Assembly: GCF_041734645.1 (NCBI RefSeq)
Contig: NZ_CP162010.1
Location: forward strand, 730,445 to 770,444
DNA: 40,000 nt
Reading direction: 5' to 3'
Source of the DNA: Aggregatibacter sp. HMT-949
GTDB lineage: Bacteria > Pseudomonadota > Gammaproteobacteria > Enterobacterales > Pasteurellaceae
Part shown: in pieces, positions 787-24,043 of the stretch
Position numbering within the stretch: the stretch's first letter is position 1
How the letters are laid out: every line of letters starts with the position of its first letter
The notes under the pieces: model-generated
Seen by the model: the letters and a program-made list of their open reading frames with translations, nothing else
Databases searched by the model: none
What the model was told of the DNA's origin: nothing
Made by a program: the position numbers and the translations under genes

Positions 787-3042
787 TTATGTGTTGTGTT
801 CCGGTTCAACTACCACAATTTCCACATTACTGTGTAAGCCGCGTGGCAGTTGCGAGCCTTTTCTGCCGCGTTCCGCACGGAATTTGTGCAGATCTTCCGG
901 TTTTAATGTGATTTTTCGTTTACCGGAATGAAACTCAAGACTGGCTTGTTCTGAAATCAGTAATAACTTCACTAATAATTCGCTGCGATCTTTCGCATTC
1001 GCGGCGGAAATGCTAACGATTTTATTGCCTTTACCTTTTGATAATACCGGTAAATCCTGCACCGGGAAAATCAACATTCTGCCTACGGATGTCAAGGCAA
1101 CAAGAAGTGCACTTGGCTTCGACAAAATGAGAGGTGCCAACACTTTGGCATTTTCCGGTAAAGAAATCAAGGCTTTTCCTGCTTTGTTACGTGCAATTAA
1201 ATCGTCAAATTTACAAATAAAGCCGTAACCGGCATCCGATGCCATCAACAAAGCTTGTTGTTCGCCTTCCATCATTACATGTTCAATGGTCGCGCCGGCC
1301 GGCAAAGTAAGTCTACCGGTGAGCGGTTCTCCTTGCGATCTGGCAGATGGCAAGGAAAGCGGATCCAGCGCGTAGCTGCGCCCCGTACTGTCGATAAACA
1401 CGGCGGCTTGATTACTCTTGCCGCAAGCGTGCGCGCGGTAATTATCGCCTGCTTTGTAGCTTAATGCTGTCGGATCAATATCGTGGCCTTTCGCGCAACG
1501 CACCCAACCCATTTGCGATAAAATCACGGTGACCGGTTCCGCAGGCGTCATTTCGCTTTCGGAAATGGCTTTGGCTTCTTCTCGTTCGACCAGTTGGGAC
1601 ATACGCGGACTGGCATATTTTTTCGCATCTTCTTGGATTTCTTTTTTAATCAGCGTGTTTAAGCGACGTTCGGAGCCTAAAGTTGTTTCTAAATTCACCC
1701 GCTCTTTTTCCAATTCATCGCGTTCCGCGCGCAGTTGGTGTTCTTCCAATTTCGCTAAATGACGCAGACGTAAATTTAAAATCGCATCGGCTTGTTCGTC
1801 GCTTAAATTAAAACGCGTCATTAATTCTGCTTTCGGGTTATCGTTGTTGCGAATAATTTCAATCACTTCATCGATATTTAAAAAGGCAATCATTAAGCCT
1901 TCTAAAATATGTAAACGCGACAATACTTTATCCAAGCGATATTGCAAACGGCGAGTGACCGTGGCACGACGAAAAACCAGCCATTCAGTGAGAATTTGCA
2001 ACAAACCTTTTACCGCCGGTTTATGATCAAGTCCGATCATATTCATATTCACGCGATAACTTTTTTCCAAATCCGTGGTGGCGAACAGGTGCGCCATTAA
2101 TGCATCGCAATCCACTCGGTTAGAACGCGGTACGATCACGATCCGAATCGGATTCTCGTGATCTGCCTCGTCGCGAATATCTTCCACCATCGGCAATTTT
2201 TTTGCCGTCATTTGTTCGGCGATTTGTGCGATGATTTTGGACGGTGAAGATTGATGCGGCAGCGCGGAAATGATGATTTCACCGTCTTCTTTTTTCCACG
2301 TTGCACGCATTTTAATTGAGCCACGGCCTTGCTCGTAAATTTTACGAATTTCCGCTTTCGGCGAAATAATTTCCGCTTCAGTCGGGAAATCAGGGCCTTG
2401 TACCACCTCGAGTATCTCATCCAGCACCGCATTGGGCTTATCCAATAGCATCACCGCCGCAGCGGCGATTTCATTGATATTGTGTGGCGGAATATCCGTC
2501 GCCATTCCCACCGCAATGCCGGTGGTGCCGTTAAGCAAAATATGCGGTAAACGCGCCGGTAAAGATTGCGGTTCTACTAATGTGCCGTCGAAGTTCGGCT
2601 GATAATCTACGGTGCCTTGCTCAAGTTCGTTAAGTAAGATTTCAGAAATTTTGGATAGGCGCGATTCCGTATAACGCATTGCCGCGAAAGATTTCGGATC
2701 GTCCGGCGCGCCCCAGTTGCCTTGTCCGTCCACGAGCGGATAACGATAAGAAAATGGTTGCGCCATTAACACCATGGCTTCGTAACAAGCACTGTCACCA
2801 TGCGGGTGAAATTTACCGAGCACATCACCGACGGTGCGAGCGGATTTTTTATATTTCGCGGTGGCGTTTAAACCCAGTTCCGACATGGCGTAAATAATGC
2901 GGCGCTGCACCGGTTTTAATCCGTCGCCGATGAAAGGCAGCGCGCGATCCATAATGACGTACATGGAGTAGTTAAGGTAGGCGCTTTCGGTGAACGTGCG
3001 CAGGGGCATTTGTTCGATGCCTTCGTAGCTGATATTAGTCAT
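787..3042 (-). CDS. parC: DNA topoisomerase IV subunit A
   Basis: 751-aa ORF with the GyrA/ParC N-terminal blocks [24 protein letters not shown] and AAMRYTE. The QRDR Ser and Glu appear wild type. The ~750 aa length and a parE gene nearby favour ParC over GyrA. Confidence 0.96.
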
Positions 3043-3108: not shown

Positions 3109-3153
3109 AGCACCGCATTGGAGCCTTATTTGGCGCGGCTTCAATGCGGTGCT
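3109..3153. repeat. Inverted pair of the CAATGCGGTGCT motif forming a 17-bp-stem hairpin (1 G-T position, 11-nt loop) between nirK and parC
   Basis: agcaccgcattggagcc (3109..3125) pairs with ggcttcaatgcggtgct (3137..3153). There is no U-tract on either side, so it is not a canonical intrinsic terminator. Confidence 0.85.
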
Positions 3154-3251: not shown

Positions 3252-4457
3252 TTACTTTTTATTTGTCGCTCCGGAAGCGCCATCCATACTATGCTCACCG
3301 CCGCCCATCATCATGCTGCCGTGGCCTTCAATTTCATACGGAACGGGTTGCGGTTTTTGGGGATTGGCTTCTTTGAACGGCATATCGCTTAATTTACCTG
3401 AGTAAATTTCCGGATTGGCTTCGCCGCTGACGATAAGTTGTCCCATAGTGCCTTTGCTGGCGGCACGAAAGATAGAATGATCCATCAATACATAGGTGCC
3501 GGGGACGTTGATTTGGGTTTCGCCGATAAATACGCCGCCGGACGGGATCAACGTGGTTTGTACGTTGTGATTAATCAGCGTGCCGCCTTCAACATATAAA
3601 TTGTGGAAGATCGAGCCAATAATATGGAATGATGAGGCTAAATTCGGGCCGGCGTTGCCAACGAAGAAACGTAATTTTTCACCGGTTTTGGCGCGTAGTG
3701 CGTTTTTATCCATTAACGCGCCGACCTTGCCGTTAAATAACACGTAGTCAGGACGTTCAGCGAGTGCTTTTTGCATGCTGAAAGGTTGTAATCCGGGGGC
3801 ACCGAAATCCCCGCGAGTATAGAATTCGCTTTGCATGATGTAATATTCGCGATCCGCTTTTGGCAAGCCTTCTTTTGGTTCTACCAAAATTAAGCCGTAC
3901 ATGCCTTTGGCTAAATGCACGGCGACCGGTTGACTGCCGCAATGGTATAAATAAAGTCCCGCATGTATCGCTTTAAATTGAAATGTGGAAGTGCGCGTTG
4001 GCGCTGTGGCGCTGGCTTCGGCACCGCCCATGGGGGCAGAGGCTGCGTGAAAATCAAGGCTGTGTTCCATCATGGAAGCGGCAGAATTAGAAAGTTGCAC
4101 TTCCACAATATCGCCTTCACGCACGCGAATAAAGGGAGCAGGCACGCCGCCGTTAAGCGTCCAGAATTTAAATTGTACGCCGTCCATTAACTCAGCGATT
4201 TGCTCCGATGCGGTCAATTTTACAATTACTTTGGCCGGATAATTGCGTTCGATGGGCTTCGGTACATTGGGGGCGGAAGTAAGTTCCGCTTCAATTTCCG
4301 GTAAAACGTTTGAAAGATTCCCCGCACTTTTACCATTGTTGGGGCTTTCATGATTTTGTGCTTGTGCGTTAGGGATCATCGCGAATCCGGCGCCCAAAGT
4401 AATGGAAACCAGACTTAATGCGCTGTTTTTAAAAAAATCACGTCGTTGTTCGTTCAT
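3252..4457 (-). CDS. nirK: copper-containing nitrite reductase (NirK/AniA type), Tat-exported
   Basis: All NirK copper ligand motifs are present. H-S-L-D-F-H carries the T1 His, catalytic Asp and T2 His. YHCGSQPVAVHLAKGM carries the T2 His, T1 Cys, T1 His at +8 and Met at +5. SFHIIG and LMDHSIFRA are also present. It is collinear with Neisseria AniA as I remember it (LYxYHC, GMYGLILVEPKEGLPK, VDHSIFRA). I chose the start at MNEQRRDFFKNS (twin-arginine motif, AQA-Q cleavage-like site) with GGAGG 6 nt upstream. The track start at 4475 adds 6 unlikely codons. Confidence 0.9.
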   Translation of the reverse strand: MNEQRRDFFKNSALSLVSITLGAGFAMIPNAQAQNHESPNNGKSAGNLSNVLPEIEAELTSAPNVPKPIERNYPAKVIVKLTASEQIAELMDGVQFKFWTLNGGVPAPFIRVREGDIVEVQLSNSAASMMEHSLDFHAASAPMGGAEASATAPTRTSTFQFKAIHAGLYLYHCGSQPVAVHLAKGMYGLILVEPKEGLPKADREYYIMQSEFYTRGDFGAPGLQPFSMQKALAERPDYVLFNGKVGALMDKNALRAKTGEKLRFFVGNAGPNLASSFHIIGSIFHNLYVEGGTLINHNVQTTLIPSGGVFIGETQINVPGTYVLMDHSIFRAASKGTMGQLIVSGEANPEIYSGKLSDMPFKEANPQKPQPVPYEIEGHGSMMMGGGEHSMDGASGATNKK

Positions 4458-4458
4458 G

Positions 4459-6357
4459 CTATACCTCCAAATCAACTTGATCTCCTTTGGCTTGCAGCCA
4501 ACTTTTCCGATCTTCCGAGCGTTTTTTAGCCAGCAGCATATCCATTATTTCCAAGGTTTCCGCACCTTCTTCATCATTTGCTTGATAAGTCAATTGCACC
4601 AAACGGCGGGTATTGGGATCCATCGTAGTTTCGCGTAATTGAGACGGATTCATTTCGCCCAATCCTTTAAAGCGCTGCACGTTTGGTTTACCTTTTTTGT
4701 TTTGTAAGCGATCTAAAATTGCCTCTTTTTCGCTTTCGTCTAATGCGTAAAATACTTCTTTATTTAAGTCGATGCGGTACAGCGGCGGCATAGCCACATA
4801 AACATGGCCGTCTTGCACCAATTTTGGAAAATGGCGTAAGAATAGTGCGCAGAGTAGGGTGGCGATGTGTAAACCATCGGAGTCTGCATCGGCGAGAATG
4901 CAAACTTTGCCATAGCGCAGTTGGGATAAATCGTCACTGTCGGGATCAATGCCCAGCGCCACTGCGATATCATGAATTTCGCTCGAGCCTAAAACTTGTT
5001 CGGGCGACACTTCCCAAGTGTTTAAAATTTTTCCGCGTAACGGCAAAATAGCCTGATATTCGCGGTCGCGGGCTTGTTTCGCCGAACCACCGGCGGAATC
5101 GCCTTCCACTAAGAACAATTCAGTTTTTTCTAAATCTTGCGAGCCACAATCGGCAAGTTTGCCCGGAAGCGCCGGGCCGCTAACCAATTTTTTACGTACC
5201 ACTTTTTTTGCCGCGCGTAAGCGACGTTGTGCCGAACTAATTGCCATTTCGGCGAGTTTTTCGGCGTCTTGCACGTTTTGATTCAGCCATAAACTGAAGG
5301 CATCTTTTAACACGCCGCCGACAAACACCGCACTTTGACGCGAAGAGAGGCGTTCTTTGGTTTGGCCGGCGAATTGTGCATCTTGCATTTTTAAGGAAAG
5401 AATGTAACCACAGCGCTCCCAAATATCGTCTGCGGTTAGCTTGACGCCGCGCGGTAATAGATTTCGAAATTCGCAAAATTCGCGAATAGCGTCCAATAGG
5501 CCTTGGCGTAAGCCGTTAACGTGCGTCCCGCCTTGAATAGTCGGGATTAAATTCACGTAGCTTTCGCCAATTAATTCGCCACCTTCCGGTAACCATAACA
5601 ACGCCCAACTAACCGCTTCATTTGAGCCTTTAAATTCGCCCACGAATGGTTTTGCCGGTAATGTTTCGTAACCGTTTACTGCTTCAATAAGATAATCGGA
5701 AAGACCGTCTTGATATAGCCAGACATCTTGCTTGCCATTCACTTTATCAATGAATTTGATTTCGAGACCCGAACAGAGCACCGCTTTGGCACGCAATAAA
5801 TGGCGCAAACGGCTGACGGAAAATTTGGCACTATCGAAATATTTCGGATTCGGTTTAAAGTGAACTGTTGTACCCGTGGTGCGTCTGCCACAAGTGCCGA
5901 CCACTTCCAATTCTTTCACTTTAACGCCGTTTTCAAAGGCAATTTGGTACACTTCGCCGTTGCGTTTTACTTGAATATCCACGCGTTCGGAAAGTGCGTT
6001 CACCACAGAAATTCCGACGCCGTGCAAACCGCCGGCAAATTCATAGTTTTTATTGGAGAATTTTCCGCCCGCGTGCAGTTTGGTGAGAATCACCTCCACG
6101 CCGGATACGCCTTCTGTCGGGTGAATATCCACCGGCATACCGCGGCCGTTATCGGTTACTTCAATAGATTGGTCGGTGTGCAAAATCACTTCAATTTTGC
6201 TTGCGAAGCCGGCAAGTGCTTCGTCCACACTATTATCAATCACTTCTTGTGCGAGGTGATTCGGACGGGTGGTGTCGGTGTACATACCGGGACGAATTTG
6301 CACCGGTTCGAGATCTTTAAGAACAGTAATTTCTTGAGCAGAATAATTGGATGTCAT
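4459..6357 (-). CDS. parE: DNA topoisomerase IV subunit B
   Basis: GHKL ATPase boxes (EVIDNSVDEALAG, DNGRGMP, GGLHGVG) and Toprim motifs (EGDSAGGSAKQ, PLRGKILN, DADSDGLHI). At ~632 aa it lacks the GyrB insertion. I chose the start at MTSNYSAQEI (6357); the track start at 6405 adds 16 codons. Confidence 0.96.
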   Translation of the reverse strand: MTSNYSAQEITVLKDLEPVQIRPGMYTDTTRPNHLAQEVIDNSVDEALAGFASKIEVILHTDQSIEVTDNGRGMPVDIHPTEGVSGVEVILTKLHAGGKFSNKNYEFAGGLHGVGISVVNALSERVDIQVKRNGEVYQIAFENGVKVKELEVVGTCGRRTTGTTVHFKPNPKYFDSAKFSVSRLRHLLRAKAVLCSGLEIKFIDKVNGKQDVWLYQDGLSDYLIEAVNGYETLPAKPFVGEFKGSNEAVSWALLWLPEGGELIGESYVNLIPTIQGGTHVNGLRQGLLDAIREFCEFRNLLPRGVKLTADDIWERCGYILSLKMQDAQFAGQTKERLSSRQSAVFVGGVLKDAFSLWLNQNVQDAEKLAEMAISSAQRRLRAAKKVVRKKLVSGPALPGKLADCGSQDLEKTELFLVEGDSAGGSAKQARDREYQAILPLRGKILNTWEVSPEQVLGSSEIHDIAVALGIDPDSDDLSQLRYGKVCILADADSDGLHIATLLCALFLRHFPKLVQDGHVYVAMPPLYRIDLNKEVFYALDESEKEAILDRLQNKKGKPNVQRFKGLGEMNPSQLRETTMDPNTRRLVQLTYQANDEEGAETLEIMDMLLAKKRSEDRKSWLQAKGDQVDLEV

Positions 6358-6403
6358 TGGTTTTTTGAATAGTTTATTTGGCAAAATTGCGAAGGATTCT
6401 ATC

Positions 6404-6436
6404 AAAAGGTGCGATCATTTTCGACCGCACTTTTTT
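6404..6436 (-). terminator. Hairpin terminator downstream of htrB, built on a Hin-type USS (accgcactt, 6424..6432) plus an imperfect inverted partner
   Basis: gtgcgatc (6409..6416) pairs with gaccgcac (6423..6430) with one mismatch. An A-run sits on one side and a T-run on the other, so it looks bidirectional. Confidence 0.6.
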
Positions 6437-6453: not shown

Positions 6454-7389
6454 TTAATCGTATAAGCTCGGATCGTTTTCATTTGGACGAGTTTTAAAAC
6501 GGCGGTGCAACCACATATATTGCGTTATGCCTTTCATAATTTCCTTTTCCACCAGTTGATTCATGCGTGCCGCGACCGCGCTTTCGTTTTCCGAATCGGT
6601 GAAATCTACCGGAGCGGAAATGCTCACTGTATAGCCGGAGCCGTCCGCATTGCGTAAAGGTACGAAAGGAATCACTTTGCTATTCGGCGAGGCTTTTAAT
6701 AAATAATAGCTCCCTGTTGTGGTGGCCGCATTTTTTACGGCGAAGAACGGTACGAACACCGCATTGCGACGGCCGTAATCATGGTCCGGCGCATACCAAA
6801 TGGTTTCGCCACGGCGCAAAGCTTTAATCATACCGCGTAAATCTTTGCGATCTAACATGTCTTTATTGGAACGCAAGCGTCCTTGAGTTTGCAGCCAGTC
6901 AAAGAGCGGATTGTCGTTTGGGCGGTAAACACCGACGCCAGGATGATATAAACCCACGATGCGGGCGCCCAACTCAAGTGTAAGAAAATGTATGCCAACG
7001 AAAATAATGCCGTTTTGTTGATTTTCTTGCAGGTAGCGCAAACCTTCCACTTTTGACCATTTCTTAATGCGCGCGTCCGACCAAAACCAAGCCATACCGG
7101 TTTCGATAATCGCCATGCCGACGGCACGCAAATTTTCTTGTAAAACCGCTTCGCGTTCGCTTTCGGGCATATCGGGAAAACACAGTTCAAGGTTACGGCG
7201 GGCAATCGCAGCACGCCGTTTGCCCACGTTTAAATGGCAAAAAAGTGCACCTAAGCCGTTGCCGATACGGCGTAGAATCGGATAGGGCAGGAACAGGAGG
7301 GCACGCCAGATGCCGATGCCGAGCCAGAATCCCCAATATTTGGGGGCAAGAAAAGCGGGGTGGAACCTAGGTAGTTTGCTATTTTTCAT
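6454..7389 (-). CDS. lpxL: lipid A biosynthesis late (lauroyl/myristoyl) acyltransferase, HtrB/LpxL family
   Basis: 311-312 aa. The N-terminus [23 protein letters not shown] and the blocks [30 protein letters not shown] and WYAPDHDYG are typical of LpxL/HtrB and very similar to H. influenzae HtrB as I recall it. Two adjacent ATGs exist (7392, 7389). Confidence 0.92.
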
Positions 7390-7483
7390 CATATTCTCGC
7401 TAAAATTGCGCGCTAGTTTAACGCAAAAATCAGTTGTGGTAAAATCGCGCCGATTTTTTTACCAGTGTTTAAGAGAGAATAAA

Positions 7484-8920
7484 ATGGCTCAATATTTAAC
7501 CGAATTTAACCGAGCAAAGGTGCTCGTATTAGGTGATGTAATGCTTGATCGTTACTGGTTTGGCGCAACCAATCGCATTTCGCCGGAAGCGCCGGTGCCG
7601 GTAGTGCGCGTACAGGAAAACGAAGAGCGCGCGGGCGGTGCGGCGAATGTGGCGATGAATATTGCATCGCTCAACGTACCGGTACAACTTATGGGCTTAA
7701 TTGGGCAAGATGAAACCGGCGCGGCGCTTTCCAAATTATTACAAAACCAGCATATCGACTGTAATTTTGTGGCGTTGGACACGCATCCGACAATTACTAA
7801 ATTACGTATTTTATCGCGTCATCAACAATTGCTTCGTCTTGATTTTGAAGAAGATTTCCAAAACACCGAGTGTAACGATTTACTTGCGAAATTAGAAAAT
7901 GAGGTGAAAAACTACGGCGCGTTGATTCTTTCCGATTACGGCAAAGGCACGTTAAAAGATGTGCAACAAATGATTCAAATTGCGCGTAAAGCCAATGTGC
8001 CGGTGTTAATTGATCCGAAAGGTACGAATTTTGAGCGCTATCGCGGCGCCACATTGCTTACCCCGAATATGGCCGAATTTGAAGCGGTGGTGGGTAAATG
8101 TAACTCGGAACAAGAAATTATTGAGAAAGGGTTGAAACTCATTGCCGATATCGATTTGACTGCACTTTTAGTCACCCGCTCTGAAAAGGGAATGACCTTA
8201 CTGCGTCCGAATCAAGAACCTTATCATTTGCCAACGGTGGCGAAAGAAGTGTTTGATGTGACCGGTGCCGGTGATACGGTGATCAGCGTTTTGGGCACCG
8301 CATTGGCGGACGGCCGTTCCTTTGAGGAATCTTGCTATTTGGCAAACGTGGCAGCCGGCATTGTGGTGGGCAAACTCGGCACCTCCACGGTTTCCACCGT
8401 GGAACTTGAAAACGCGATCCACGCCCGTCCGGAAACCGGTTTCGGCATTATGACTGAAGCCCAACTGAAAGAGGCCGTGGCGCAGGCCAAAGCGCGCGGT
8501 GAAAAAATCGTGATGACTAACGGCTGCTTTGATATTCTTCATCCGGGTCACGTGTCTTATTTAGAAAATGCCCGCAAATTGGGCGATCGTTTAATCGTCG
8601 CGGTCAACAGCGATGAATCGGTAAAACGTTTAAAAGGCGAAAGTCGTCCGATTAATAATTTGGACGCCCGCATGGCAGTGCTTGCCGGATTGGCTTCCGT
8701 GGATTGGTTGGTGCCATTTACTGAAGATACGCCGCAACGTTTAATTGGCGAAGTGTTGCCGGATCTACTTGTCAAAGGTGGCGACTACAAACCGGAAGAA
8801 ATTGCCGGAGCCAAAGAAGTGTGGGCGAACGGCGGCGATGTGAAAGTACTTAATTTTGAAAACGGCTGTTCGACGACCAATGTGATTGAAAAAATTAAAT
8901 CGTTGAAAGACGAAAAATAG
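7484..8920 (+). CDS. hldE: bifunctional D-beta-D-heptose 7-phosphate kinase / D-beta-D-heptose 1-phosphate adenylyltransferase
   Basis: N-terminal ribokinase-like domain ([22 protein letters not shown]) plus C-terminal cytidylyltransferase domain ([16 protein letters not shown]). The true start is MAQYLTEF at 7484. The track ORF from 7310 overlaps htrB and is an artefactual extension. Confidence 0.95.
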
Positions 8921-9038: not shown

Positions 9039-9050
9039 CAATGCGGTGCT
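9039..9050 (+). repeat. Single intergenic copy of the CAATGCGGTGCT motif
   Basis: Exact 12-mer. CTGAATTGAG-like boxes lie at 9013..9022 and 9071..9081, and the same box follows the motif at 3152..3161. Confidence 0.9.
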
Positions 9051-9867: not shown

Positions 9868-9879
9868 AGCACCGCATTG
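9868..9879 (-). repeat. Single intergenic copy of the CAATGCGGTGCT motif (reverse orientation)
   Basis: agcaccgcattg. The reverse complement reads gcgttcaatgcggtgctaatttga. Confidence 0.9.
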
Positions 9880-9947: not shown

Positions 9948-12230
9948 TTACTCGGTTCGCATGGTTTCGGCAAATTGCGCGGCAATGGCTGCTTGTCCTA
10001 AACTTAATCCGCCATCGCCCATCGGATATTGATGGCCACTTAGCACTTTAAATTCCGTTAAATTTTCTTTCAATAAACGACGCAATAATTGATTGTGCAT
10101 CACACCGCCGGAAAGCACGATGGTGCGGCAATTGTGTTTTTCCGCGTGTTTACGTGCAAGAGTTGCAAAACCTTGTGCCAAGGCATAATGAAACGCGAAG
10201 GCTTTATCTTCTTTTGAACCTTCGTAAGCCAACCAACTTTGCCAGAAAACGGCGAGATCTAATTTATTCTCTTTTATCGGCATTTTAACCGTGATATCGA
10301 GCGTGCTTTTATTTTTGGCTAAAGGAGATTGTGCGGCAAGCGCCTCTAAATGACAGGCGGCCTCGCCTTCCCACGAGAGTTTTTCAGCGGTGATGCCTAA
10401 GCCGTAGGCCACCGCATCAAATAAGCGACCGGTGGAGGAAATTAATGGCGAATTAACTTTGCCTTCAATTGCTGCTGCAAGCGTTTGCCAAGGCAAATCA
10501 GCACAGCTTTGCGTCGCAATCTCGCGCCAATGCGGTACGAATTGTTGTAAATGCGCAAGCCAGTTGCGCCAAGGTTGAGTCGCCGCTAAATCGCCGCCGG
10601 GCAATGCAACTGCGGGCAGGCCACCTAAATGGCGGCATTGGACACCGTTTACCAACAAGCATTCGCCGCCCCAAAGCTGTCTGTTTTCGCCCATGCCGAT
10701 GCCGTCTAAGGCGATGCCGATCGTTTTGTCGCAGCAATGATGTTCTGCCAGTACGGCAGCAATGTGAGCATGATGGTGAAGTATTTCCACGTAAGGCCGG
10801 CCAAGCTTTTTCGCCAAGGCTTTTCCGATTTTTGAAGAAAAATAACCTTGGTGTGCATCCACCGCAATGATATCCGGCGTGAATTGGTAGATGTGCGAAA
10901 ACAGCGCAATGTTATTTTCTAATTGTTGTTGCACCAATTCGTTAGCGGTGTCGCCGATATGCTGGCTGACCACTGCTTTATTTTGTTTTAACAAACAGAA
11001 AGTGTTTTTTAAATCGGAACCGAATGCCAAAATATTGCGTTGATTTTGCGTATTCAGTACGGTTTCATCCGGCACATAGCCGCGAGCGCGACGCAAGATT
11101 TCCGGGCCATCGAACGCGGCACGGACTAAGGAATCGTCGGCACGCTGTAAAATGTCGCGGTTATGACAAAGATAAAAATCCGCTAATGCAGCTAATTTTT
11201 TGAGCGCATTTTCGTTATCCAAAACCGGCGGTTCGCCACTTGGATTCGCCGACGTCATGACCAAGGGTATCGCGGTTTCTCGCAGCAATAGATGTTGCAA
11301 CGGGTTGCTCGGTAACATCACGCCGATTTCGTTCAAATGGGGCGCGATATTTTCCGCTAAGTTTGGTACTTTGGATTTCTCTAACAGTACAATCGGCGCG
11401 GTGACGGAAGTTAAAAGTCGAATCTCGTCGTCGCTTAAATTTTGAAGAAAAGTAAGGCTTGGCACCATCACGGCGAGCGGTTTGCTCAGGCGATGTTTAC
11501 GCACCCTTAAATTCAGCACCGCATTGAAATCCCGTGCGTCGCAGGCCAAATGAAATCCGCCGATGCCTTTTACTGCAATGATTTTGCCTTCGCGCAGTAA
11601 ATGCGCGCTTTGTTTTAGCGCCGCTTCACTGTTGGCAAGGCGGTGGTTTTGATCTTGCAACCAAATATGTGGACCGCAAACGGCGCAAGCATTGGGTTGT
11701 GCGTGGAAACGGCGATCGGCAGGATTTTTGTATTCGGCGGCACACTCGGGGCAGAGAGAAAAATTCGCCATGGAGGTATTTTTGCGGTCGTAGGGAATGG
11801 CTTTAATAATGGTAAAACGCGGACCGCAGTGAGTACAGTTAGTGAAAGGGTAGTGGTAGCGCCGATTGGTTGGGTCGAATAAATCTTGCAGGCAGGCGGG
11901 ACAGGTAGCAGCGTCTGGCACGATTTGGGTGTCCATGGCGTTGTTTTCACTTTCGCGGATTTCAAAGCCGTCAAAGTGTGGTGGATTTTCCCAGCGTTTT
12001 TCATGCTGCTGAATGTCGGTAATAAGGGCCAGTGGTGGTAGTTTGTTGTGCAAATCGTGTAGGAATTGTTGTAACTGTTGTTTCGTTGGTTCCAGCAGGC
12101 GGATTAACACACCTTGTCCGTCGTTATTGACATCGCCATGTAGTCCGTATTTGTTCGCCAGTAACCAGACAAAAGGACGAAACCCTACGCCTTGTACTTT
12201 ACCTTTGATTCTTAACTCGATTCCGTTCAT
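9948..12230 (-). CDS. hypF: [NiFe]-hydrogenase maturation carbamoyltransferase HypF
   Basis: 760 aa. It has an acylphosphatase domain (GKVQGVGFRPFV) and two zinc-finger pairs (CPACLQD...CTHCGPRFT and CPECAAEY...CAVCGP). YrdC-like and Kae1-like C-terminal domains follow. Confidence 0.95.
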   Translation of the reverse strand: MNGIELRIKGKVQGVGFRPFVWLLANKYGLHGDVNNDGQGVLIRLLEPTKQQLQQFLHDLHNKLPPLALITDIQQHEKRWENPPHFDGFEIRESENNAMDTQIVPDAATCPACLQDLFDPTNRRYHYPFTNCTHCGPRFTIIKAIPYDRKNTSMANFSLCPECAAEYKNPADRRFHAQPNACAVCGPHIWLQDQNHRLANSEAALKQSAHLLREGKIIAVKGIGGFHLACDARDFNAVLNLRVRKHRLSKPLAVMVPSLTFLQNLSDDEIRLLTSVTAPIVLLEKSKVPNLAENIAPHLNEIGVMLPSNPLQHLLLRETAIPLVMTSANPSGEPPVLDNENALKKLAALADFYLCHNRDILQRADDSLVRAAFDGPEILRRARGYVPDETVLNTQNQRNILAFGSDLKNTFCLLKQNKAVVSQHIGDTANELVQQQLENNIALFSHIYQFTPDIIAVDAHQGYFSSKIGKALAKKLGRPYVEILHHHAHIAAVLAEHHCCDKTIGIALDGIGMGENRQLWGGECLLVNGVQCRHLGGLPAVALPGGDLAATQPWRNWLAHLQQFVPHWREIATQSCADLPWQTLAAAIEGKVNSPLISSTGRLFDAVAYGLGITAEKLSWEGEAACHLEALAAQSPLAKNKSTLDITVKMPIKENKLDLAVFWQSWLAYEGSKEDKAFAFHYALAQGFATLARKHAEKHNCRTIVLSGGVMHNQLLRRLLKENLTEFKVLSGHQYPMGDGGLSLGQAAIAAQFAETMRTE

Positions 12231-13260: not shown

Positions 13261-13274
13261 ATGATCTCAATCAA
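13261..13274 (+). promoter_or_regulatory. FNR-like box upstream of hyfA
   Basis: ATGAT-CTCA-ATCAA matches TTGAT-N4-ATCAA at 9/10. It lies in a 270-bp AT-rich divergent intergenic region, centred 114 bp upstream of the hyfA ATG. The -10 assignment is ambiguous (TAATAC at 13300..13305). Confidence 0.5.
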
Positions 13275-13381: not shown

Positions 13382-13981
13382 ATGAATCGTTTTGTTATCG
13401 GTGATCCCAAAGACTGTATAGGATGTAACACATGCATGGCTGCGTGTAGCGAAACCCATAAAGCCTTCGGATTACAATCTTATCCTCGGTTACAAGTCAT
13501 GCGTAATGACGACATAACCGTTCCAATCCTCTGTCGTCATTGTGATGACTCGCCGTGTGCCACGGTATGTCCGGTACACGCGATAACTCATGTGAATGAC
13601 ACCATTCAACTCAATGAATCTTTATGTATCGGTTGCAAATTGTGCGGAATTGCCTGTCCGTTTGGGGCGATCACACAACATGGTAGTGCGCCGATCGATG
13701 CACCTGCGTATTATGAAAGTTTCACCTTTACTGATGCAGTGAAACGGGATATTCGTACTGCTCCGGATAATTCGGAATTACACAATATGTTGGCATGGCA
13801 ACCGGGCGTGAAAGCAATTGCGGTGAAATGTGATTTGTGTTACTTCCGCGAAGAAGGCCCGGCGTGCGTGCAAACTTGTCCGACGAAAACCCTGTTTATC
13901 ATCAGTGATAAGAGTATTGAACAAGCTAACCTTAAAAAACGTGAAATGGCATTAACGTCTTCACCTGCTATTCCAAGATAG
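13382..13981 (+). CDS. hyfA: hydrogenase-4 component A, 4Fe-4S ferredoxin-type
   Basis: The N-terminus MNRFVIGDPKDCIGCNTCMAAC is collinear with E. coli HyfA/HycB. Multiple CxxCxxCxxxCP clusters are present. Confidence 0.92.
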   Translation: MNRFVIGDPKDCIGCNTCMAACSETHKAFGLQSYPRLQVMRNDDITVPILCRHCDDSPCATVCPVHAITHVNDTIQLNESLCIGCKLCGIACPFGAITQHGSAPIDAPAYYESFTFTDAVKRDIRTAPDNSELHNMLAWQPGVKAIAVKCDLCYFREEGPACVQTCPTKTLFIISDKSIEQANLKKREMALTSSPAIPR

Positions 13982-14014
13982 TTTTGTTTACTCGTTAATC
14001 AATGGAGTGAAATT

Positions 14015-16036
14015 ATGAGTTATTCAATTAGTTTACTCGTCACGACCCTGTTGATTTATGTCGTCGGTGCGTTTATTTCGCTCATCGTAAGTCGAAATGA
14101 ACAACTTTCAATCAATATATCCGGCGTGACCGGTATACTTGGTGGAGTGTTAGGTATCGCAGCCTGCATCCCCGTTCTTATCAGCAGCGACACTGTCGTT
14201 GATGTATTCCAAACCCCATTTGAATTTGCTCGCTTCTCCATCCGTATCGACGGATTGGCTGCATTTATGGTGTGCGTGATTTCTTTATTGGTCGTGGTCA
14301 GTGCACTTTATTCTTTCTCTTATGTGAAAGAATATAAAGGTAAAGGTGCAGGTTCCATGGGGTTCTTTATGAATCTCTTTATCGCTTCGATGGTTGCATT
14401 AGTGACCTGCGATAATGCGTTCTACTTTTTAGTCTTTTTTGAAATGATGTCGTTGGCATCTTATTTCTTGGTGTTAACCGAACAAGATGATAACGCTGTG
14501 AATGCCGGTTTATTGTATTTCTTCATTGCACATGCCGGTTCCGTGTTAATCATGATCGCCTTCTTTATTTTCTACTGCTATTCGGGCAGTTTTGAATTTG
14601 GTGATTTCCGACAAACCCGCCTTTCCGAACCGCTTGCCTTCACTGTGTTTGTTTTGGCTTTCCTCGGTTTTGGGGCAAAAGCGGGGATGATTCCATTACA
14701 CAGTTGGTTACCAAAAGCTCACCCGGCTGCACCATCTCATGCGTCCGCGTTAATGTCCGGCGTTATGGTGAAAATCGGGATTTTCGGGATCGTGAAAGTC
14801 GGGATCGATCTCTTGGGTGCTACCAATATGTGGTATGGCGTGATTGTATTGGGCTTTGGCGCTGTATCTTCTGTTCTTGGTGTGCTTTATGCCCTTGCCG
14901 AACATGATATTAAAAAATTATTGGCTTATCACACGGTAGAAAATATCGGCATTATTATGATGGGCGTTGGTGTTGGCATGATCGGCATTGCGACGCATCA
15001 TCCGGTACTGGCTACCGTTGGTTTGCTGGGTGGGTTGTACCACTTATTAAACCATGCTGTATTTAAAGGCTTATTGTTCTTAGGCGCAGGTTCCGTGATG
15101 TATCGGTTACATACCAAAGATATGGATCTTATGGGTGGCTTAGGTAAACTCATGCCATATACCGCGTTCTGTTTCTTAATTGGTACCATGGCGATTTCTG
15201 CCTTACCACCGTTTAACGGTTTTGTCAGTGAATGGTTTACCTATCAATCTTTATTCAGTCTCAGTCAAAGTGATGATCTCGTGCTAAAACTTGCCGGTCC
15301 GATTGCCATTATTATGCTTGCGTTAACCGGTGCACTGGCGGCACTTTGCTTCGTGAAAGTGTATGGGATTAGCTTCGGTGGTGCGCCTCGCAGTGAAGGC
15401 GCGGCAAATGCCCGTGAAGTGCCAAAACCAATGGTCATTGCCATGGGAATTTTGGCGTTATGCTGTATCTTATTGGGCGTGGGTGCCTCTGTCGTGACCC
15501 CAGTAATAGCGAAAATTTCCACCGCACTTGCCAATTCGGCATCAATCACGTTAGCGCATAATGGCGTGCTCGTTGCTCAAGCTGAGCCGAATACGGCACT
15601 TTCTACACCAATGGTGACAATTATGCTGTTGGCGTTCTTCTTCCTGCCGTTCACTTACTATGCCTTAACTAAAAATCAACGGGTGGCTGCTCGCTCTAAA
15701 GGCAATCCTTGGGCTTGTGGTTATGCCTATGAAAGCGATATGGCCGCTTCTGCAGGTAGTTTTACCCAACCGTTACGCACGATCTTTAAACCGCTTTACA
15801 CCTTGCGCCAAGTATTAGATCCGGCACCGTTAGGAAATAAAGGCGTTCAGGCGTTAATTAAAGGTGCAACGAAAACCGAACCGTTCTGGGAAGAAAAAGT
15901 CACGATGCCGATTGGCCATGTCATTCCTTGGTTAGGGCGTAAAATTCAATGGCTGCAACAAGGCGATTTCCGTGTGTATTGCGTGTATTTCGTGATTGCC
16001 TTGGTGGCAATATTGCTTTCCATTGCATTGATGTAG
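14015..16036 (+). CDS. hyfB: hydrogenase-4 membrane subunit B (NuoL-like antiporter-type)
   Basis: 673-aa polytopic protein with the NuoL/HycC motif WLPKAHPAAPSHASALMSG. It occupies the second position in the operon. Confidence 0.92.
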   Translation: MSYSISLLVTTLLIYVVGAFISLIVSRNEQLSINISGVTGILGGVLGIAACIPVLISSDTVVDVFQTPFEFARFSIRIDGLAAFMVCVISLLVVVSALYSFSYVKEYKGKGAGSMGFFMNLFIASMVALVTCDNAFYFLVFFEMMSLASYFLVLTEQDDNAVNAGLLYFFIAHAGSVLIMIAFFIFYCYSGSFEFGDFRQTRLSEPLAFTVFVLAFLGFGAKAGMIPLHSWLPKAHPAAPSHASALMSGVMVKIGIFGIVKVGIDLLGATNMWYGVIVLGFGAVSSVLGVLYALAEHDIKKLLAYHTVENIGIIMMGVGVGMIGIATHHPVLATVGLLGGLYHLLNHAVFKGLLFLGAGSVMYRLHTKDMDLMGGLGKLMPYTAFCFLIGTMAISALPPFNGFVSEWFTYQSLFSLSQSDDLVLKLAGPIAIIMLALTGALAALCFVKVYGISFGGAPRSEGAANAREVPKPMVIAMGILALCCILLGVGASVVTPVIAKISTALANSASITLAHNGVLVAQAEPNTALSTPMVTIMLLAFFFLPFTYYALTKNQRVAARSKGNPWACGYAYESDMAASAGSFTQPLRTIFKPLYTLRQVLDPAPLGNKGVQALIKGATKTEPFWEEKVTMPIGHVIPWLGRKIQWLQQGDFRVYCVYFVIALVAILLSIALM

Positions 16037-16046
16037 GAGGTCGAAC

Positions 16047-17009
16047 ATGATTACGTTACCTTCAGAAATTGCCATATCCGCCGGAATGTTTGCCTTGGCC
16101 ATTGCGCAAGCCTTGATTTTACTTGCGCTTGCCCCGTTATTTTCCGGTATTTCACGGATGATTCGTGCGCGTATTCAGTCGCGCCGTGGTCCGGGATTGT
16201 TACAGGATTATCGTGACATTGCGAAATTGATGAAACGGCAAAATATTTGGCCGGATAATGCCGGTGCGGTTTCTCGCATGATGCCTTACGTGTTAATCAG
16301 CACCGTCATGGTAGTGGCAATGAGTTTGCCTTTGGTTACTCGAGTTTCACCGTTTGGGGCAGGCAGTGATTTAATTACCGTGGTTTATTTATTAGCGCTG
16401 TTTCGTTTCTTCTTCTCCATTGCCGGTTTGGATTCAAACAGTACATTCTCAAGTTTAGGTGCAAGCCGTGAAGTAACACTAGGTGTGTTGGTTGAACCGA
16501 TTTTAATGTTGGCGTTTTTAGTGATTGCGTTGATTGCCGGTTCGACTAACTTTGCCGTGATTGGCACACAACTTTCAGAACAAAGTTGGCAATATCCCAT
16601 TGCGACGTTGGTGGCTCTGGTTGCTGCCTTCTTCGCTGTGTTTATTGAAATGGGGAAAATTCCGTTTGACTTGGCCGAAGCAGAACAAGAATTGCAAGAA
16701 GGCCCATTGACTGAATATTCAGGTCCATCTCTTGCCTTGTTGAAAATAGGCTTAAGCTTAAAATCCATGGTGGTTGCAGCCATCTTTGTGAGTGTCTTAT
16801 TGCCATTCGGTGCCGCACAGGATTTGAGTATAAGTGCGGTTGTTCTTGGCACTGTTTTCTTCTTCGTGAAATTGTTGGTGGTGTTCGTGTTAGCTTGTGT
16901 TTTTGAAAATACACTTTCCCGTACCCGCTTCATGTTAACCGGACGTTTAACGGTTGTCGGCTTCGGCATTTCTGTGTTGGCGTTTGTGTTTTACCTCACA
17001 GGATTGTAA
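16047..17009 (+). CDS. hyfC: hydrogenase-4 membrane subunit C (NuoH/HycD-like)
   Basis: 320-aa polytopic protein with RGPGLLQDYRDI and PFDLAEAEQELQEG, typical of the HycD/NuoH family. Confidence 0.9.
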   Translation: MITLPSEIAISAGMFALAIAQALILLALAPLFSGISRMIRARIQSRRGPGLLQDYRDIAKLMKRQNIWPDNAGAVSRMMPYVLISTVMVVAMSLPLVTRVSPFGAGSDLITVVYLLALFRFFFSIAGLDSNSTFSSLGASREVTLGVLVEPILMLAFLVIALIAGSTNFAVIGTQLSEQSWQYPIATLVALVAAFFAVFIEMGKIPFDLAEAEQELQEGPLTEYSGPSLALLKIGLSLKSMVVAAIFVSVLLPFGAAQDLSISAVVLGTVFFFVKLLVVFVLACVFENTLSRTRFMLTGRLTVVGFGISVLAFVFYLTGL

Positions 17010-17021
17010 GGAGGAAAGAAT

Positions 17022-18467
17022 ATGGAACGTTTAGCTCTGATTACAATCATATTGCCGTTTGTGGGGGCTTTTATCGTAGGCCTAACAAAAACAAATTTTG
17101 CCAAATTAGCGACGTTTTTTGCAGCATTGACGACTGTCTGTATCAGTGCATTAGCAGGACAGTGGTATTTAAATGGTCATCAAAGCGTGACCTATGATCT
17201 GGTGGCATTCGATCACACCGTCATTTTTGGGGTGACATTGGATGCAGTCAGCACCTTGATTGGCTTCGCTGTGGTCAGTCTTGGTTTCTTGATTTGCTTA
17301 TATTCTTGTGGCTATTTAACCGATAAAAACCGTGAACATCCACATAACGGCTTACCACGTTTTTATGCATTCCTACTCATTTTTATCGGTGCGATGGCAG
17401 GTTTAGTGTTGTCTTCTACCTTGGCTGGTCAATTGCTGTTTTTTGAAATTACCGGTGTTTGTTCTTGGGCATTAATTAGCTATTATCAAAGCCAGAAAGC
17501 CATGGCAGCTGCAATGAAAGCCTTGATTATTACCCATGTAGGCGCTATTGGTTTATACATTGCAGCGGCTTATTTGTTCAGCCAATCCGGTACATTTTCT
17601 ATCACCGCATTGGAACATTTAGACCCGAGTGCGAAAAGCATTGTGCTCTTCGGCGTAATGTTTGCTGCTTGGGGTAAATCCGCACAGTTGCCAATGCAAA
17701 TTTGGTTACCGAATGCCATGGAAGCCCCTACACCGGTGAGTGCTTATTTGCACGCCGCATCAATGGTTAAAGTGGGCGTGTATATCTTTGCTCGTGCTGT
17801 GATGTCTGCCGGTGATATTCCATCGATTGTGGGCGAAGTGGGCATCATCATGGCGATGATTACCTTAATTTACGGCTTTATGATGTATTTGCCGCAAACA
17901 GACTTAAAACGTTTGTTGGCATATTCCACCATTACCCAACTTTCTTATATTTTCATTGGGATTTCTCTTGCTGCCTTAGGTTCTAAATTAGCCTTGGTTG
18001 CAGCGGTTGCTTATATCTTCAACCATGCTTTTGCAAAAAGTTTGTTCTTCTTGGTTGCCGGTTCCTTAAGTTATGCCACCGGAACCCGCTCCATGCCGTT
18101 ATTACAAGGGATTATGCGCACGATGCCTGTCGTTGGAGCCGGGTTTGGTATTGCTGCGTTAGCGATTGCCGGCGTGCCGCCATTTAATGGATTTTTTAGC
18201 AAGTTCCCGTTGTTTGCTGCCGGCTTTGAATTAGGCAATGAGTATAGTTGGATCACGATCTTGATGGTGATTGCATTGATTGAATCTACGGCGACTTTCG
18301 TATGGTTGCTGTATAAATTCGGACAATGTGTCATTGGTCAACCGTCGGACGCTGTTGCCAAAGCTCAGCCCATTACACTTTCTATGTACGTCGTATTAGT
18401 CGTGCTTATGGTGATGTCGGTTTGTTCCGGTTTTATTGCTGCCTATTGGCTGGGTTTAGCAGGTTAA
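17022..18467 (+). CDS. hyfD: hydrogenase-4 membrane subunit D (NuoM/N-like)
   Basis: 481-aa polytopic protein with WLPNAMEAPTPVSAYLHAA. Its presence distinguishes Hyf from Hyc. Confidence 0.9.
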   Translation: MERLALITIILPFVGAFIVGLTKTNFAKLATFFAALTTVCISALAGQWYLNGHQSVTYDLVAFDHTVIFGVTLDAVSTLIGFAVVSLGFLICLYSCGYLTDKNREHPHNGLPRFYAFLLIFIGAMAGLVLSSTLAGQLLFFEITGVCSWALISYYQSQKAMAAAMKALIITHVGAIGLYIAAAYLFSQSGTFSITALEHLDPSAKSIVLFGVMFAAWGKSAQLPMQIWLPNAMEAPTPVSAYLHAASMVKVGVYIFARAVMSAGDIPSIVGEVGIIMAMITLIYGFMMYLPQTDLKRLLAYSTITQLSYIFIGISLAALGSKLALVAAVAYIFNHAFAKSLFFLVAGSLSYATGTRSMPLLQGIMRTMPVVGAGFGIAALAIAGVPPFNGFFSKFPLFAAGFELGNEYSWITILMVIALIESTATFVWLLYKFGQCVIGQPSDAVAKAQPITLSMYVVLVVLMVMSVCSGFIAAYWLGLAG

Positions 18468-18477
18468 GGAGGAATCT

Positions 18478-19116
18478 ATGTTAATGATTAATGGTCTTGC
18501 AAGTTTACTCATTATTACCTCACTCTGCGTCATTATGGTAAGAACCGCCAAAAAAGCGGCAATGTTTTATGGCTTGCAATCTCTCGTTTTGGTTTTGCTG
18601 TTTGTCTATCTTGCTTATGAAATGCAAGCACACGAGCTCTATATGTGGTCAATCAGCGCCTTTATTACCAAAGTTATTTTAGTGCCGGCGATTTTAATCT
18701 ACGCCATGCGCCACATTGATGAAAGTCAAACCCCGGCGGGGATGGATATTGCGTGGTTGTTGCCCATCACAGCTTGCATTGTCACCTTGTGTTACTTTGT
18801 GATCATGCCGATTGACTTGCCGTTAGTGGAACATCTCAAACCGGCGCTTTCTGTGTCTTTAAGCCACTTTCTGCTTGGTTTGGTATGTATTGTGAGTCAG
18901 CGCAATATCGTAAAACAAGTATTCGGTTATTGTTTGATGGAAAACGGGTCTCATCTCACTTTAGCCTTATTGGCAAATAAAGCACCTGAATTGGTCGAAA
19001 TCGGGATTGCCACAGATGCTATCTTCGCGGTCATCATTATGGTGGTGTTGGTAAATAAAATTTACCGAACATTCCATTCATTAGATGCAAAACAACTTAT
19101 GAATTTGAAGGGGTAA
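18478..19116 (+). CDS. hyfE: hydrogenase-4 membrane subunit E
   Basis: 212-aa hydrophobic protein at the operon position and size of HyfE. Confidence 0.85.
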   Translation: MLMINGLASLLIITSLCVIMVRTAKKAAMFYGLQSLVLVLLFVYLAYEMQAHELYMWSISAFITKVILVPAILIYAMRHIDESQTPAGMDIAWLLPITACIVTLCYFVIMPIDLPLVEHLKPALSVSLSHFLLGLVCIVSQRNIVKQVFGYCLMENGSHLTLALLANKAPELVEIGIATDAIFAVIIMVVLVNKIYRTFHSLDAKQLMNLKG

Positions 19117-19120
19117 CGCT

Positions 19121-20659: not shown

Positions 20660-20678
20660 TCGACATGAGGGGGAAAAA

Positions 20679-22409: not shown

Positions 22410-22421
22410 GGGAGGCGGAAG

Positions 22422-23069
22422 ATGTTTAAGTTACTTAAAACGGTATTTAAAGCCGGTGACGTTACCACGAAATATCCGTTCAAACCTTATGAAGTGGATG
22501 ACGATTTTAGAGGAAAACCGGAGCTTAATTCCGATCAATGTATTGTCTGTGCCGCTTGTACCATGGCTTGTCCATCAAATGCATTGACGATGCGCACCGA
22601 TCCTGTCAGTGGTGAACGTACTTGGTCACTTTTCTTGGGGCGTTGTATTTTCTGTGGCCGTTGTGAAGAAGTTTGCCCAACCAAAGCAATTCATTTAACA
22701 CAGGATTTTGAATTGTCGGTCACCAACAAACAGGATCTTTATCAAGAAACGACCTTTGCGACGGTTACCTGTCAGCACTGTGGCAAACCGTTTATTTCTT
22801 ATAAAGAGCTAAATTACACCATTGATTTGTTCAAACAAACGTTGGATGACCCACAATTAGTGAAACAAAAATTGGAAGTATTGCATACTTGCCCGGTGTG
22901 TAAGCGTCAAGACAGTTTAGAGAAAATTGCCAATATGGAATCCAATATGCGGATGAAATTGATCGACTTTAAAGAGCCGGTTCGTTTGAATTTCAAACAA
23001 ATGGTTGAGCAACGGGAAGAAAGTGCGGTGCAAAATTCAAAAGTTTTAGCAGGAGGCGAAAAACGATGA
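22422..23069 (+). CDS. hyfH: hydrogenase-4 4Fe-4S subunit H (HycF-like)
   Basis: Contains [12 protein letters not shown] and [12 protein letters not shown] clusters plus CQHCGKPF...CPVCKRQ, as in HycF. Its C-terminus is about 35 aa longer than the E. coli homologues. Confidence 0.9.
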
Positions 23070-23842: not shown

Positions 23843-23887
23843 TTATGGTTTCTGTTTTTGTTTATGGAACAGCGCCCCAAGCGTGTT

Positions 23888-23960
23888 CAATGCGGTGCTG
23901 ATTCGTTACTTCGTTGTAATCTTCTAGGTTTGCCATATAACGAGCGTTCAATGCGGTGCT
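23888..23960 (+). repeat. Two direct copies of GTTCAATGCGGTGCT (23888..23899 and 23949..23960, 61 bp apart) inside the hyfI-hyfJ spacer
   Basis: Exact 12-mers with similar flanks: gcgtgttcaatgcggtgctgatt and gagcgttcaatgcggtgctaatt. Confidence 0.9.
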
Positions 23961-24043
23961 AATTTGATGTTCCGTTGCCGCCTTGTTTGAGGATTGAAGG
24001 ATTACGTAATAATGGAAGGCAAGAAACTTTATAAGGCTGTGTT

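Follow-up and report, generated by a model that had tools for sequence, protein, structure and literature searches.

Why should a gene for a nitric oxide (NO)-forming nitrite reductase lie between the two genes encoding the subunits of DNA topoisomerase IV, how long has it been there, and from which promoter is it transcribed? These questions are raised by a 40-kb window (the whole stretch of DNA that was analysed, 40,000 nucleotides) from the genome of Aggregatibacter sp. HMT-949 (NZ_CP162010.1), in which nirK, encoding a copper-containing, NO-forming nitrite reductase (3252..4457; 401 aa plus the stop codon at 3254..3252), is flanked by parE (4459..6357) and parC (787..3042), all three genes being carried by the minus strand. 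All positions given below follow the numbering of this window. ParE, subunit B of topoisomerase IV (632 aa, with its ATG at 6357), scores 1205.6 bits on TIGR01055 and contains the Pfam domains HATPase_c, DNA_gyraseB, Toprim and DNA_gyraseB_C, while ParC, subunit A (751 aa), scores 1365.7 bits on TIGR01062. A preliminary description of this locus had been made, and direct reading of the minus strand returned the same coordinates for every feature that it named.

Taking all the evidence together, the best explanation is that nirK is a long-standing resident of the interval between parE and parC, that its product is a functional periplasmic enzyme, and that its transcription most likely starts at the parE promoter. 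We consider this explanation probable, and the evidence that bears on its different parts, as well as on the alternatives to each of them, is set out below.

Occurrence of nirK between parE and parC in the Pasteurellaceae

One genome per species was scanned with ParE, and NirK, ParC, LpxL and HldE were then mapped onto the loci found. The ParE matches listed, which were mostly from Enterobacterales, included at least about 16 species of Pasteurellaceae, and the remaining loci came from contigs encoding NirK homologues. In 12 of the 13 Pasteurellaceae NirK lineages examined, belonging to at least five genera, nirK is located between parE and parC, with gaps of 1-84 nt between parE and nirK. This arrangement appears in the window and in a conspecific metagenomic contig (L091), in an NCBI assembly whose NirK is 77% identical (L089), in the lineage of protein P0017 (L093), in three loci of the Haemophilus parainfluenzae group, in Pasteurella caecimuris, in a strain of A. 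actinomycetemcomitans (L081), in Necropsobacter massiliensis, [Mannheimia] succiniciproducens and Actinobacillus porcinus (L083), in two loci of Pasteurella langaaensis (L087, L088), and in a further deep lineage represented by protein P0027 (L092). The outer neighbours vary from one locus to another: lpxL-hldE, an ABC-F gene, an SBF transporter gene or ccp-ytfE are found upstream, and gltS, tilS, a Sel1 gene or a gene for a metallo-beta-lactamase-fold protein downstream. Thus, the unit that is conserved across loci is the three-gene core only.

The sole exception is H. paraphrohaemolyticus (L085, L086), which comes from a group whose own parE and parC are unlinked (three loci). Other members of the family have the two topoisomerase genes without nirK, either adjacent, as in Haemophilus sp. 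oral taxon 851, A. segnis, Mesocricetibacter, Volucribacter and Testudinibacter, or with unrelated sequence lying between them, as in A. actinomycetemcomitans DSM 8324 (about 550 bp) and Lonepinella (about 900 bp). The two genes lie side by side in Vibrio, Orbaceae and Morganellaceae as well, so that nirK entered an older gene pair, long ago.

The preliminary description had taken nirK for an insertion into a housekeeping block, and had itself named general occupation of this position in relatives as the result that would speak against such a reading; the comparison of loci returned precisely that result. It had also pointed out that Pasteurellaceae classically reduce nitrite with NrfA; NirK homologues, however, are common in the family and that of the window is not exceptional. 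Homologues are already annotated as copper nitrite reductases in public genomes, and the enzyme itself is an ordinary one.

History of nirK at the locus

In a neighbour-joining tree of 50 NirK cores, the window protein belongs to a clade A (bootstrap 200/200), whose members carry a twin-arginine translocation (Tat)-like signal, and a second Pasteurellaceae group, clade B (192/200), carries Sec-type signals. A grouping of clade A with Neisseria was recovered in 0/200 bootstraps. Mean NirK identities are 64% between clades A and B, 60% between clade A and Neisseria, and 59% between clade B and Neisseria. When ParE and ParC of the same genomes are used to build a tree, the hosts of clade A form one group and those of clade B fall outside it, and the distances of NirK and of ParE plus ParC are correlated (Spearman 0.69, the pairs not being independent). 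In base composition nirK resembles its flanks, with a G+C content of 48.3%, 49.0% at third codon positions, and a codon-usage correlation of r = 0.89, the corresponding values for parE and parC being 47%, 46-48.5% and r = 0.91-0.92.

These data bear directly on the proposal, contained in the preliminary description, that a Neisseria-type aniA was inserted recently and in a single lineage between parE and parC. Its best arguments are that the top match of NirK among solved structures is gonococcal AniA, that the closest ParE relative of the window among the matches listed, that of Haemophilus sp. oral taxon 851, comes from a genome with adjacent parE and parC and no nirK, and that nirK did enter the older pair at some point. 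However, the same slot is filled across genera, Pasteurellaceae NirK proteins are only about 60% identical to those of Neisseriaceae and are never nested within them, composition and codon use equal those of the flanking genes, and both the signal peptide and the C-terminus are unlike those of AniA. A recent insertion of this kind is very improbable.

If nirK is an old resident, its patchy distribution has to be accounted for. The simplest account is that it is ancestral at this locus and was afterwards repeatedly lost or replaced. Alternatively, a nirK cassette could have been exchanged time and again through natural transformation, with the highly conserved parE and parC serving as homology arms. 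Pasteurellaceae are naturally competent, and these loci are rich in uptake signal sequences (USS). Moreover, two strains of A. actinomycetemcomitans differ cleanly at this point, with flanks 92-94% identical and no remnant of nirK in the strain that lacks it, and the absence of nirK from oral taxon 851, mentioned above, fits an exchange as well. Against this, the NirK tree mirrors that of ParE plus ParC, no closely shared nirK alleles are found between genera, synonymous divergence of nirK between species is saturated like that of its flanks, and the sliding-window identity across parE and parC reveals no clear mosaic block next to nirK. As the main cause of the distribution, cassette exchange is therefore a real but rather doubtful possibility. 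Exchange within a species or between close ones is plausible and is compatible with the explanation preferred here, and such transformation between close relatives probably contributes to the distribution. The adjacency of parE and parC of the type seen in H. influenzae (oral taxon 851, A. segnis and others) is explained equally well by loss or by cassette replacement, and no remnants of nirK were detected in the nirK-negative parE-parC spacers by tblastn at E values of up to 10.

The A. actinomycetemcomitans polymorphism has some features of its own. In L081 the order is parE-nirK-lysE-parC, with genes for a ytfE/dnrN-like protein and a cytochrome c peroxidase just upstream of parE, while in DSM 8324 (L071) the place of nirK and lysE is taken by the unrelated spacer mentioned above, which is USS-rich.

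The enzyme encoded by nirK

NirK scores 320.7 bits over its whole length on TIGR02376, whose curated equivalog cut-off is 296.3, and covers model positions 11-324 of 326. Its two cupredoxin domains are matched by Pfam Cu-oxidase_3 and Cu-oxidase_2, and its best solved relative is AniA of Neisseria gonorrhoeae (1kbv; E = 3e-125, residues 49-361, about 60% identity), a trimeric enzyme whose full-length alignment with NirK likewise supports the two domains. The type 1 copper ligands H132, C173, H181 and M186 are invariant in 50 homologues and are the same residues in AniA 1kbv; in the alignment of these homologues the type 2 copper ligands H137, H172 and H327 are invariant too, as are the catalytic residues D135 and H278. 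The type 2 copper site of NirK enzymes is formed by three histidines, one of them contributed by the neighbouring subunit. Accordingly, the product of nirK is predicted to be a functional, periplasmic, AniA-related copper nitrite reductase, which would convert nitrite to NO.

The gene is under purifying selection. Comparison of the window with the conspecific metagenomic contig gave a ratio of nonsynonymous to synonymous substitution (dN/dS) of 0.14, and between species the proportion of nonsynonymous differences (pN) is 0.14-0.17 against a saturated synonymous value (pS) of about 0.76. This has to be set against the idea that nirK is a decaying or non-functional passenger tolerated within an operon. 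That idea could draw on the patchy occurrence of the gene, which is missing from many relatives, and on its isolation, since the 40-kb window contains no norB, nsrR, cupredoxin or cytochrome donor gene, and hence neither an electron-donor nor a regulator gene for NirK, a point on which the preliminary description, which had noted the lack of norB, nsrR and cupredoxin genes nearby, was right. Nevertheless, the 401-aa open reading frame is intact, none of the metal-binding and catalytic residues varies among the homologues, the gene has been kept across genera and is under purifying selection, and in the window a Shine-Dalgarno sequence has been created for it inside parE (see below). In at least M. 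succiniciproducens, norB is reported to lie elsewhere in the genome (Rodionov et al., PMC1274295), and the NarP regulon of A. pleuropneumoniae and of M. succiniciproducens includes norB, hcp and dnrN (Rodionov et al., PMC1274295); genes for NO handling can therefore sit elsewhere in nirK-bearing relatives. A non-functional passenger is, in consequence, barely credible.

Comparison with AniA and between the two clades

The label AniA-type, which the preliminary description had given to the enzyme, proves apt for the catalytic core but not for the termini. Like AniA (PDB 1KBV, 5TB7), an outer-membrane enzyme, NirK has a core of two cupredoxin domains, with identical type 1 and type 2 copper ligands and the same catalytic aspartate and histidine, and the Neisseria host, too, lives on mucosae as a commensal or pathogen and has a denitrification pathway that is truncated. 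AniA, however, is a lipoprotein with a LAAC lipobox (LAAC or LSAC in the Neisseria homologues) and Ala/Ser/Pro-rich C-terminal repeats, whereas NirK of the window begins with a Tat-like signal containing RRDFFK, has no cysteine in its N-terminal region, and ends in a His/Met-rich tail. The genetic setting is different as well: aniA of Neisseria is divergent from norB and has a promoter of its own, controlled by FNR, NarP and NsrR (PMC1274295, PMC1802743), while nirK of the window abuts parE with no promoter detected, no FNR or NarP consensus upstream and no norB in 40 kb. The Neisseriaceae relatives of NirK are lipoproteins, and many of them carry a fused C-terminal cytochrome c domain.

The N-terminal signal region of NirK (residues 1-33, 4359..4457, minus strand), MNEQRRDFFKNSALSLVSITLGAGFAMIPNAQA, shows the parts of a Tat signal: a twin-arginine motif, QRRDFFK (consensus S/T-R-R-x-F-L-K), then a hydrophobic h-region and, as AxA cleavage site, AQA. 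It is followed by QN, so that no lipobox cysteine of the kind that makes AniA a lipoprotein is present. The sequence MNEQRRDF[FL]K is kept in all clade A homologues. The Tat model TIGR01409 gave 13.3 bits, slightly below its cut-off of 16.7 (E = 0.084), and export by the Tat system is accordingly likely, though short of established.

At the other end, alignments delimit a C-terminal extension of 40 residues (362-401, 3255..3374, minus strand), KEANPQKPQPVPYEIEGHGSMMMGGGEHSMDGASGATNKK, in which a conserved NPQKPQPVPYEI[DE]xH core is followed by a variable His/Met-rich stretch and a SGAT[KNRQ]K end. This extension is found in all Tat-type clade A NirK proteins of Pasteurellaceae, is absent from AniA and from clade B, and has no match in Pfam or NCBIfam. 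A role as a copper-handling or docking element is a matter of speculation.

Within clade A, the proteins of P. caecimuris, Rodentibacter, A. actinomycetemcomitans and the H. parainfluenzae group are 72-79% identical to NirK of the window and share with it the MNEQRRDF signal, the NPQKPQPVPYEI...SGATxK tail and the position between parE and parC. They differ in their spacers, since 13-33 nt precede nirK in most members versus 1 nt in the window, L091 and L089, and the distance from nirK to parC has its extremes in H. parainfluenzae (14 nt) and the window (209 nt); the extra lysE gene distinguishes the A. actinomycetemcomitans locus. Clade B proteins ([Mannheimia] succiniciproducens, Necropsobacter, A. 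porcinus, P. langaaensis, H. paraphrohaemolyticus, A. vicugnae) are 55-60% identical to that of the window, and their genes occupy the same location, except in the Actinobacillus sensu stricto/H. parahaemolyticus group. Unlike those of clade A, they begin with a Sec-type signal (MKKT...) that lacks the twin arginine, and their C-terminus is short (DKRNPDADV..F.H); in H. paraphrohaemolyticus nirK is free-standing behind an FNR-type promoter. Two export types, twin-arginine in clade A (P0002-P0019) and Sec in clade B (P0021-P0095), thus fill one chromosomal slot across the family.

The parE-nirK junction and translation of nirK

On the minus strand the junction reads ...GAT TTG GAG GTA TAG c ATG AAC GAA CAA CGA CGT..., in which the parE stop codon TAG (4461..4459) is separated by a single base, C at 4458, from the nirK start codon ATG (4457..4455). 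Although the open reading frame as listed reaches back to 4475 (TTG), it is the ATG at 4457 that agrees with the start of every homologue (MNEQRRDF...). A Shine-Dalgarno sequence GGAGG (4464..4468, minus strand) is placed 6 nt before this ATG, within the parE codons for Leu-Glu-Val, so that both the 1-nt gap and the ribosome-binding site inside the last parE codons, as given in the preliminary description, are confirmed by reading the sequence.

The last codons of parE are TTG GAG GTA TAG, and ParE of the window ends in DLEV versus DLAV, DLTV or DLVV in relatives (4462-4467). It is the penultimate Glu codon, GAG, that generates GGAGG, relatives carrying Ala, Thr or Val at that place. The motif is present inside parE in the window and in L091 and absent from L089, being specific to the species of the window. 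Because this GAG codon creates GGAGG at an ideal distance from the nirK start, the C-terminus of ParE in this species has apparently been shaped by the need for a ribosome-binding site for the downstream gene.

Lying on the same strand and 1 nt apart, parE and nirK have the geometry of an operon with translational coupling. A 1-nt junction is also found in L089, where it reads TAA A ATG and no good Shine-Dalgarno sequence precedes it, and, as an independent case, in A. porcinus (TAA T ATG); this recurrence suggests that termination-reinitiation may be in use within the Pasteurellaceae. Thus, nirK of the window could be translated by reinitiation after the parE stop codon 1 nt upstream, or by direct initiation at GGAGG. 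Folding of the RNA at the junction revealed no significant structure (z = 0.43). With a strong Shine-Dalgarno sequence in unstructured RNA, independent initiation is as possible as coupling, which should be regarded as a hypothesis.

Transcription of nirK

Upstream of parE-nirK a single candidate promoter was recognised, with an extended -10 (TCGAAA-17-TAGAAT; 6424..6396, minus strand) and known as a consensus match only, which overlaps a terminator-like hairpin of lpxL (6430..6409, minus strand) built on a Hin-type USS. Between this site and nirK, neither a sigma-70-like promoter nor an intrinsic terminator is predicted on the minus strand. In ten nirK-positive loci, the 450 nt upstream of nirK were scanned for FNR and NarP sites; in the window, neither an FNR site (TTGAT-N4-ATCAA) with up to 2 mismatches nor a NarP-like 7-2-7 site with up to 4 mismatches was found, in agreement with the preliminary description, which had seen no FNR box or obvious promoter there. 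As the scans detect for nirK neither a promoter of its own nor an FNR box or a terminator, the simplest reading is that it is co-transcribed with parE. In the proposed mechanism, transcription would start from the parE promoter near 6424..6396 and proceed as a parE-nirK(-parC) unit, and a hairpin formed by a pair of uptake sequences past nirK may attenuate or stabilise the transcript ahead of parC. The H. parainfluenzae loci, whose spacers are 16 nt between parE and nirK and 14 nt between nirK and parC, leave no intergenic room for a parC promoter, and the essential gene parC could therefore hardly be transcribed there without nirK. No usable published transcript data on nirK of H. parainfluenzae or A. 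actinomycetemcomitans were found in the literature searched.

The alternative is that a regulated promoter lying within the 3' portion of parE drives nirK, induced for instance by anaerobiosis or nitrite through FNR, NarP or another factor, and that the tight junction reflects gene packing only. This would be in keeping with the FNR, NarP and NsrR control of Neisseria aniA already described, although NsrR is absent from the Pasteurellaceae altogether (Rodionov et al., PMC1274295), and constitutive production of NO seems costly. Furthermore, the free-standing nirK of H. paraphrohaemolyticus is preceded by TTAATctaaATCAT (L085 5924-5937), centred about 41.5 bp upstream of the start predicted from a TATAAT (5960-5965), which makes its upstream region a textbook case of a predicted class II FNR-type promoter; the family thus appears to use FNR for nirK when given room, and the scanning method can detect such promoters. 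Of the ten loci, two have an FNR-like box at conserved Trp-Leu-Gln codons of parE, those of P. langaaensis (1 mismatch) and A. porcinus (2 mismatches), the former with a -10-like sequence over the parE stop codon.

In the window, however, the site homologous to the P. langaaensis box, TTGGCTGCAAGCCA, has 4 mismatches and is no better than that of nirK-negative relatives (3-6), and apart from P. langaaensis and A. porcinus nirK-positive and nirK-negative genomes are alike at that site, with 3-6 mismatches. To the negative scans given above, including the lack of a sigma-70-like hexamer pair, has to be added that no nirK-specific synonymous constraint was found in the last 180 codons of parE when nirK-positive genomes were compared with controls (|z| <= 1.7; 632-aa ParE proteins only), so that no sign is seen of a family-conserved element in the 3' end of parE, which would have lowered synonymous variation in the nirK-positive genomes alone. 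In addition, with a gap of 1 nt, a -10 element near the parE stop codon would start transcription within nirK. An own promoter in the window species is, on this balance, unlikely, and co-transcription with parE is favoured.

Evidence weighing against the proposed explanation

Some observations nevertheless count against the explanation adopted here, with respect both to expression and to history. In P. langaaensis, the FNR-like sequence TTGGTTGCAATCAA (1 mismatch; L087 5874-5887) within the end of parE, the TATAAA over the parE stop codon (L087 5912-5917) and the 84-nt spacer between parE and nirK indicate that at least one relative may drive nirK independently. Consensus scans miss weak or activator-dependent promoters, so that a lineage-specific promoter inside parE is possible, and, given the strong Shine-Dalgarno sequence and the unstructured RNA, translation of nirK may be independent of that of parE. 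As to history, the grouping of Pasteurellaceae clades A and B to the exclusion of Neisseriaceae has a bootstrap of only 102/200; the nirK-negative loci contain no remnants, and loss is deduced from the distribution of the gene; and, ParE and ParC being the products of the flanking genes, transfer of the whole block would give an identical tree pattern.

The nirK-parC spacer, the uptake-sequence motif and other features of the window

The spacer of 209 nt between nirK and parC is strongly structured (fold z = -5.3). It contains, at 3109..3153, an inverted pair of the 12-mer AGCACCGCATTG / CAATGCGGTGCT, which forms a perfect 12-bp hairpin. The hairpin has no U-tract and was not called by the terminator scan. 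Other uptake-sequence pairs suggest what it could do: as a partial terminator it may reduce read-through, or it may stabilise the 3' end of the transcript.

The word CAATGCGGTGCT is the most over-represented one in the window. Its reverse complement, the 12-mer AGCACCGCATTG, occurs at 16 exact sites and at 37 sites with up to 2 mismatches, versus about 4 expected; among them are 2423-2434, 3109-3120, 3142-3153, 9039-9050, 9868-9879, 11515-11526, 23888-23899, 23949-23960, 28523-28534, 29949-29960 and 34481-34492. The sequence CAATGCGGT is found 24 times in the window (0.6 per kb); of the canonical Hin-type USS, AAGTGCGGT, there are 7 copies, and of the Apl-type, ACAAGCGGT, none. In 19 other Pasteurellaceae loci, which are of the Hin or Apl type, the CAATGCGGTGCT word has at most 1 copy, whereas 4 copies are present in the conspecific contig L091. 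A tandem array at 36856-36990, in the spacer past a gshF-like gene, repeats a 24-bp unit, AAGAGTTCAATGCGGTGCTCTGAG, 5.5 times, every copy having a USS-like motif (TRF score 217), an arrangement that is unusual for an uptake motif. Only two USS types are described for Pasteurellaceae in the literature searched (PMC1626085), and CAATGCGGTGCT may represent a third, apparently undescribed, dialect of DNA-uptake sequence.

Upstream of parE, the window carries lpxL/htrB (7392..6454, minus strand) and, beyond it, hldE (about 7484..8920, plus strand), and a gltS-like gene lies downstream of parC. An Rfam scan of the whole window at gathering thresholds returned no match. A scan of the whole window for FNR sites with up to 1 mismatch found FNR-like sites only away from nirK, for instance upstream of hyfA, where the box ATGATCTCAATCAA is located at 13261-13274. 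This gene belongs to a complete hyf/hyc-type formate hydrogenlyase operon, hydrogenase-4-like, with hyfA-I, hycH and hycI (13382-24902), and hypF is found at 9948-12230. The hyf operon points to an anaerobic, fermentative lifestyle, and its upstream box indicates that FNR-type sites are recognisable in this genome.

Significance

Denitrification genes in H. parainfluenzae and A. actinomycetemcomitans have already been noted in reviews (PMC12267184), but no paper naming nirK together with parE and parC was found in the literature searched. The new point is a modest one: an NO-forming reductase gene is kept within the topoisomerase IV gene cluster across a bacterial family, apparently without a control region of its own in several lineages, the spacers often being too short to hold a promoter, as in the window (1 nt) and in H. 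parainfluenzae (16 nt and 14 nt). A stronger version, in which, in many Pasteurellaceae and among them abundant oral nitrate reducers such as H. parainfluenzae, nirK is hard-wired into the topoisomerase IV operon, its expression being constitutive or linked to growth rate instead of controlled by oxygen or nitrite, and in which the unit has been kept by selection for this, is quite unlikely as things stand and can be offered as a tentative idea only. If true, it would be a mode of control unlike that of any characterised denitrifier, and would bear on bacterial production of NO in the mouth.

The results correct the impression that Pasteurellaceae rely on NrfA alone for the reduction of nitrite. 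In addition, the existence of nirK-positive and nirK-negative strains within one species, for instance A. actinomycetemcomitans, provides a natural test system. If the expression of nirK does follow that of its two neighbours, NirK would be produced whatever the oxygen supply by these mouth and airway commensals, which would matter for the oral nitrate-nitrite-NO pathway, H. parainfluenzae being a recognised nitrate reducer in it (PMC3966736, PMC12267184).

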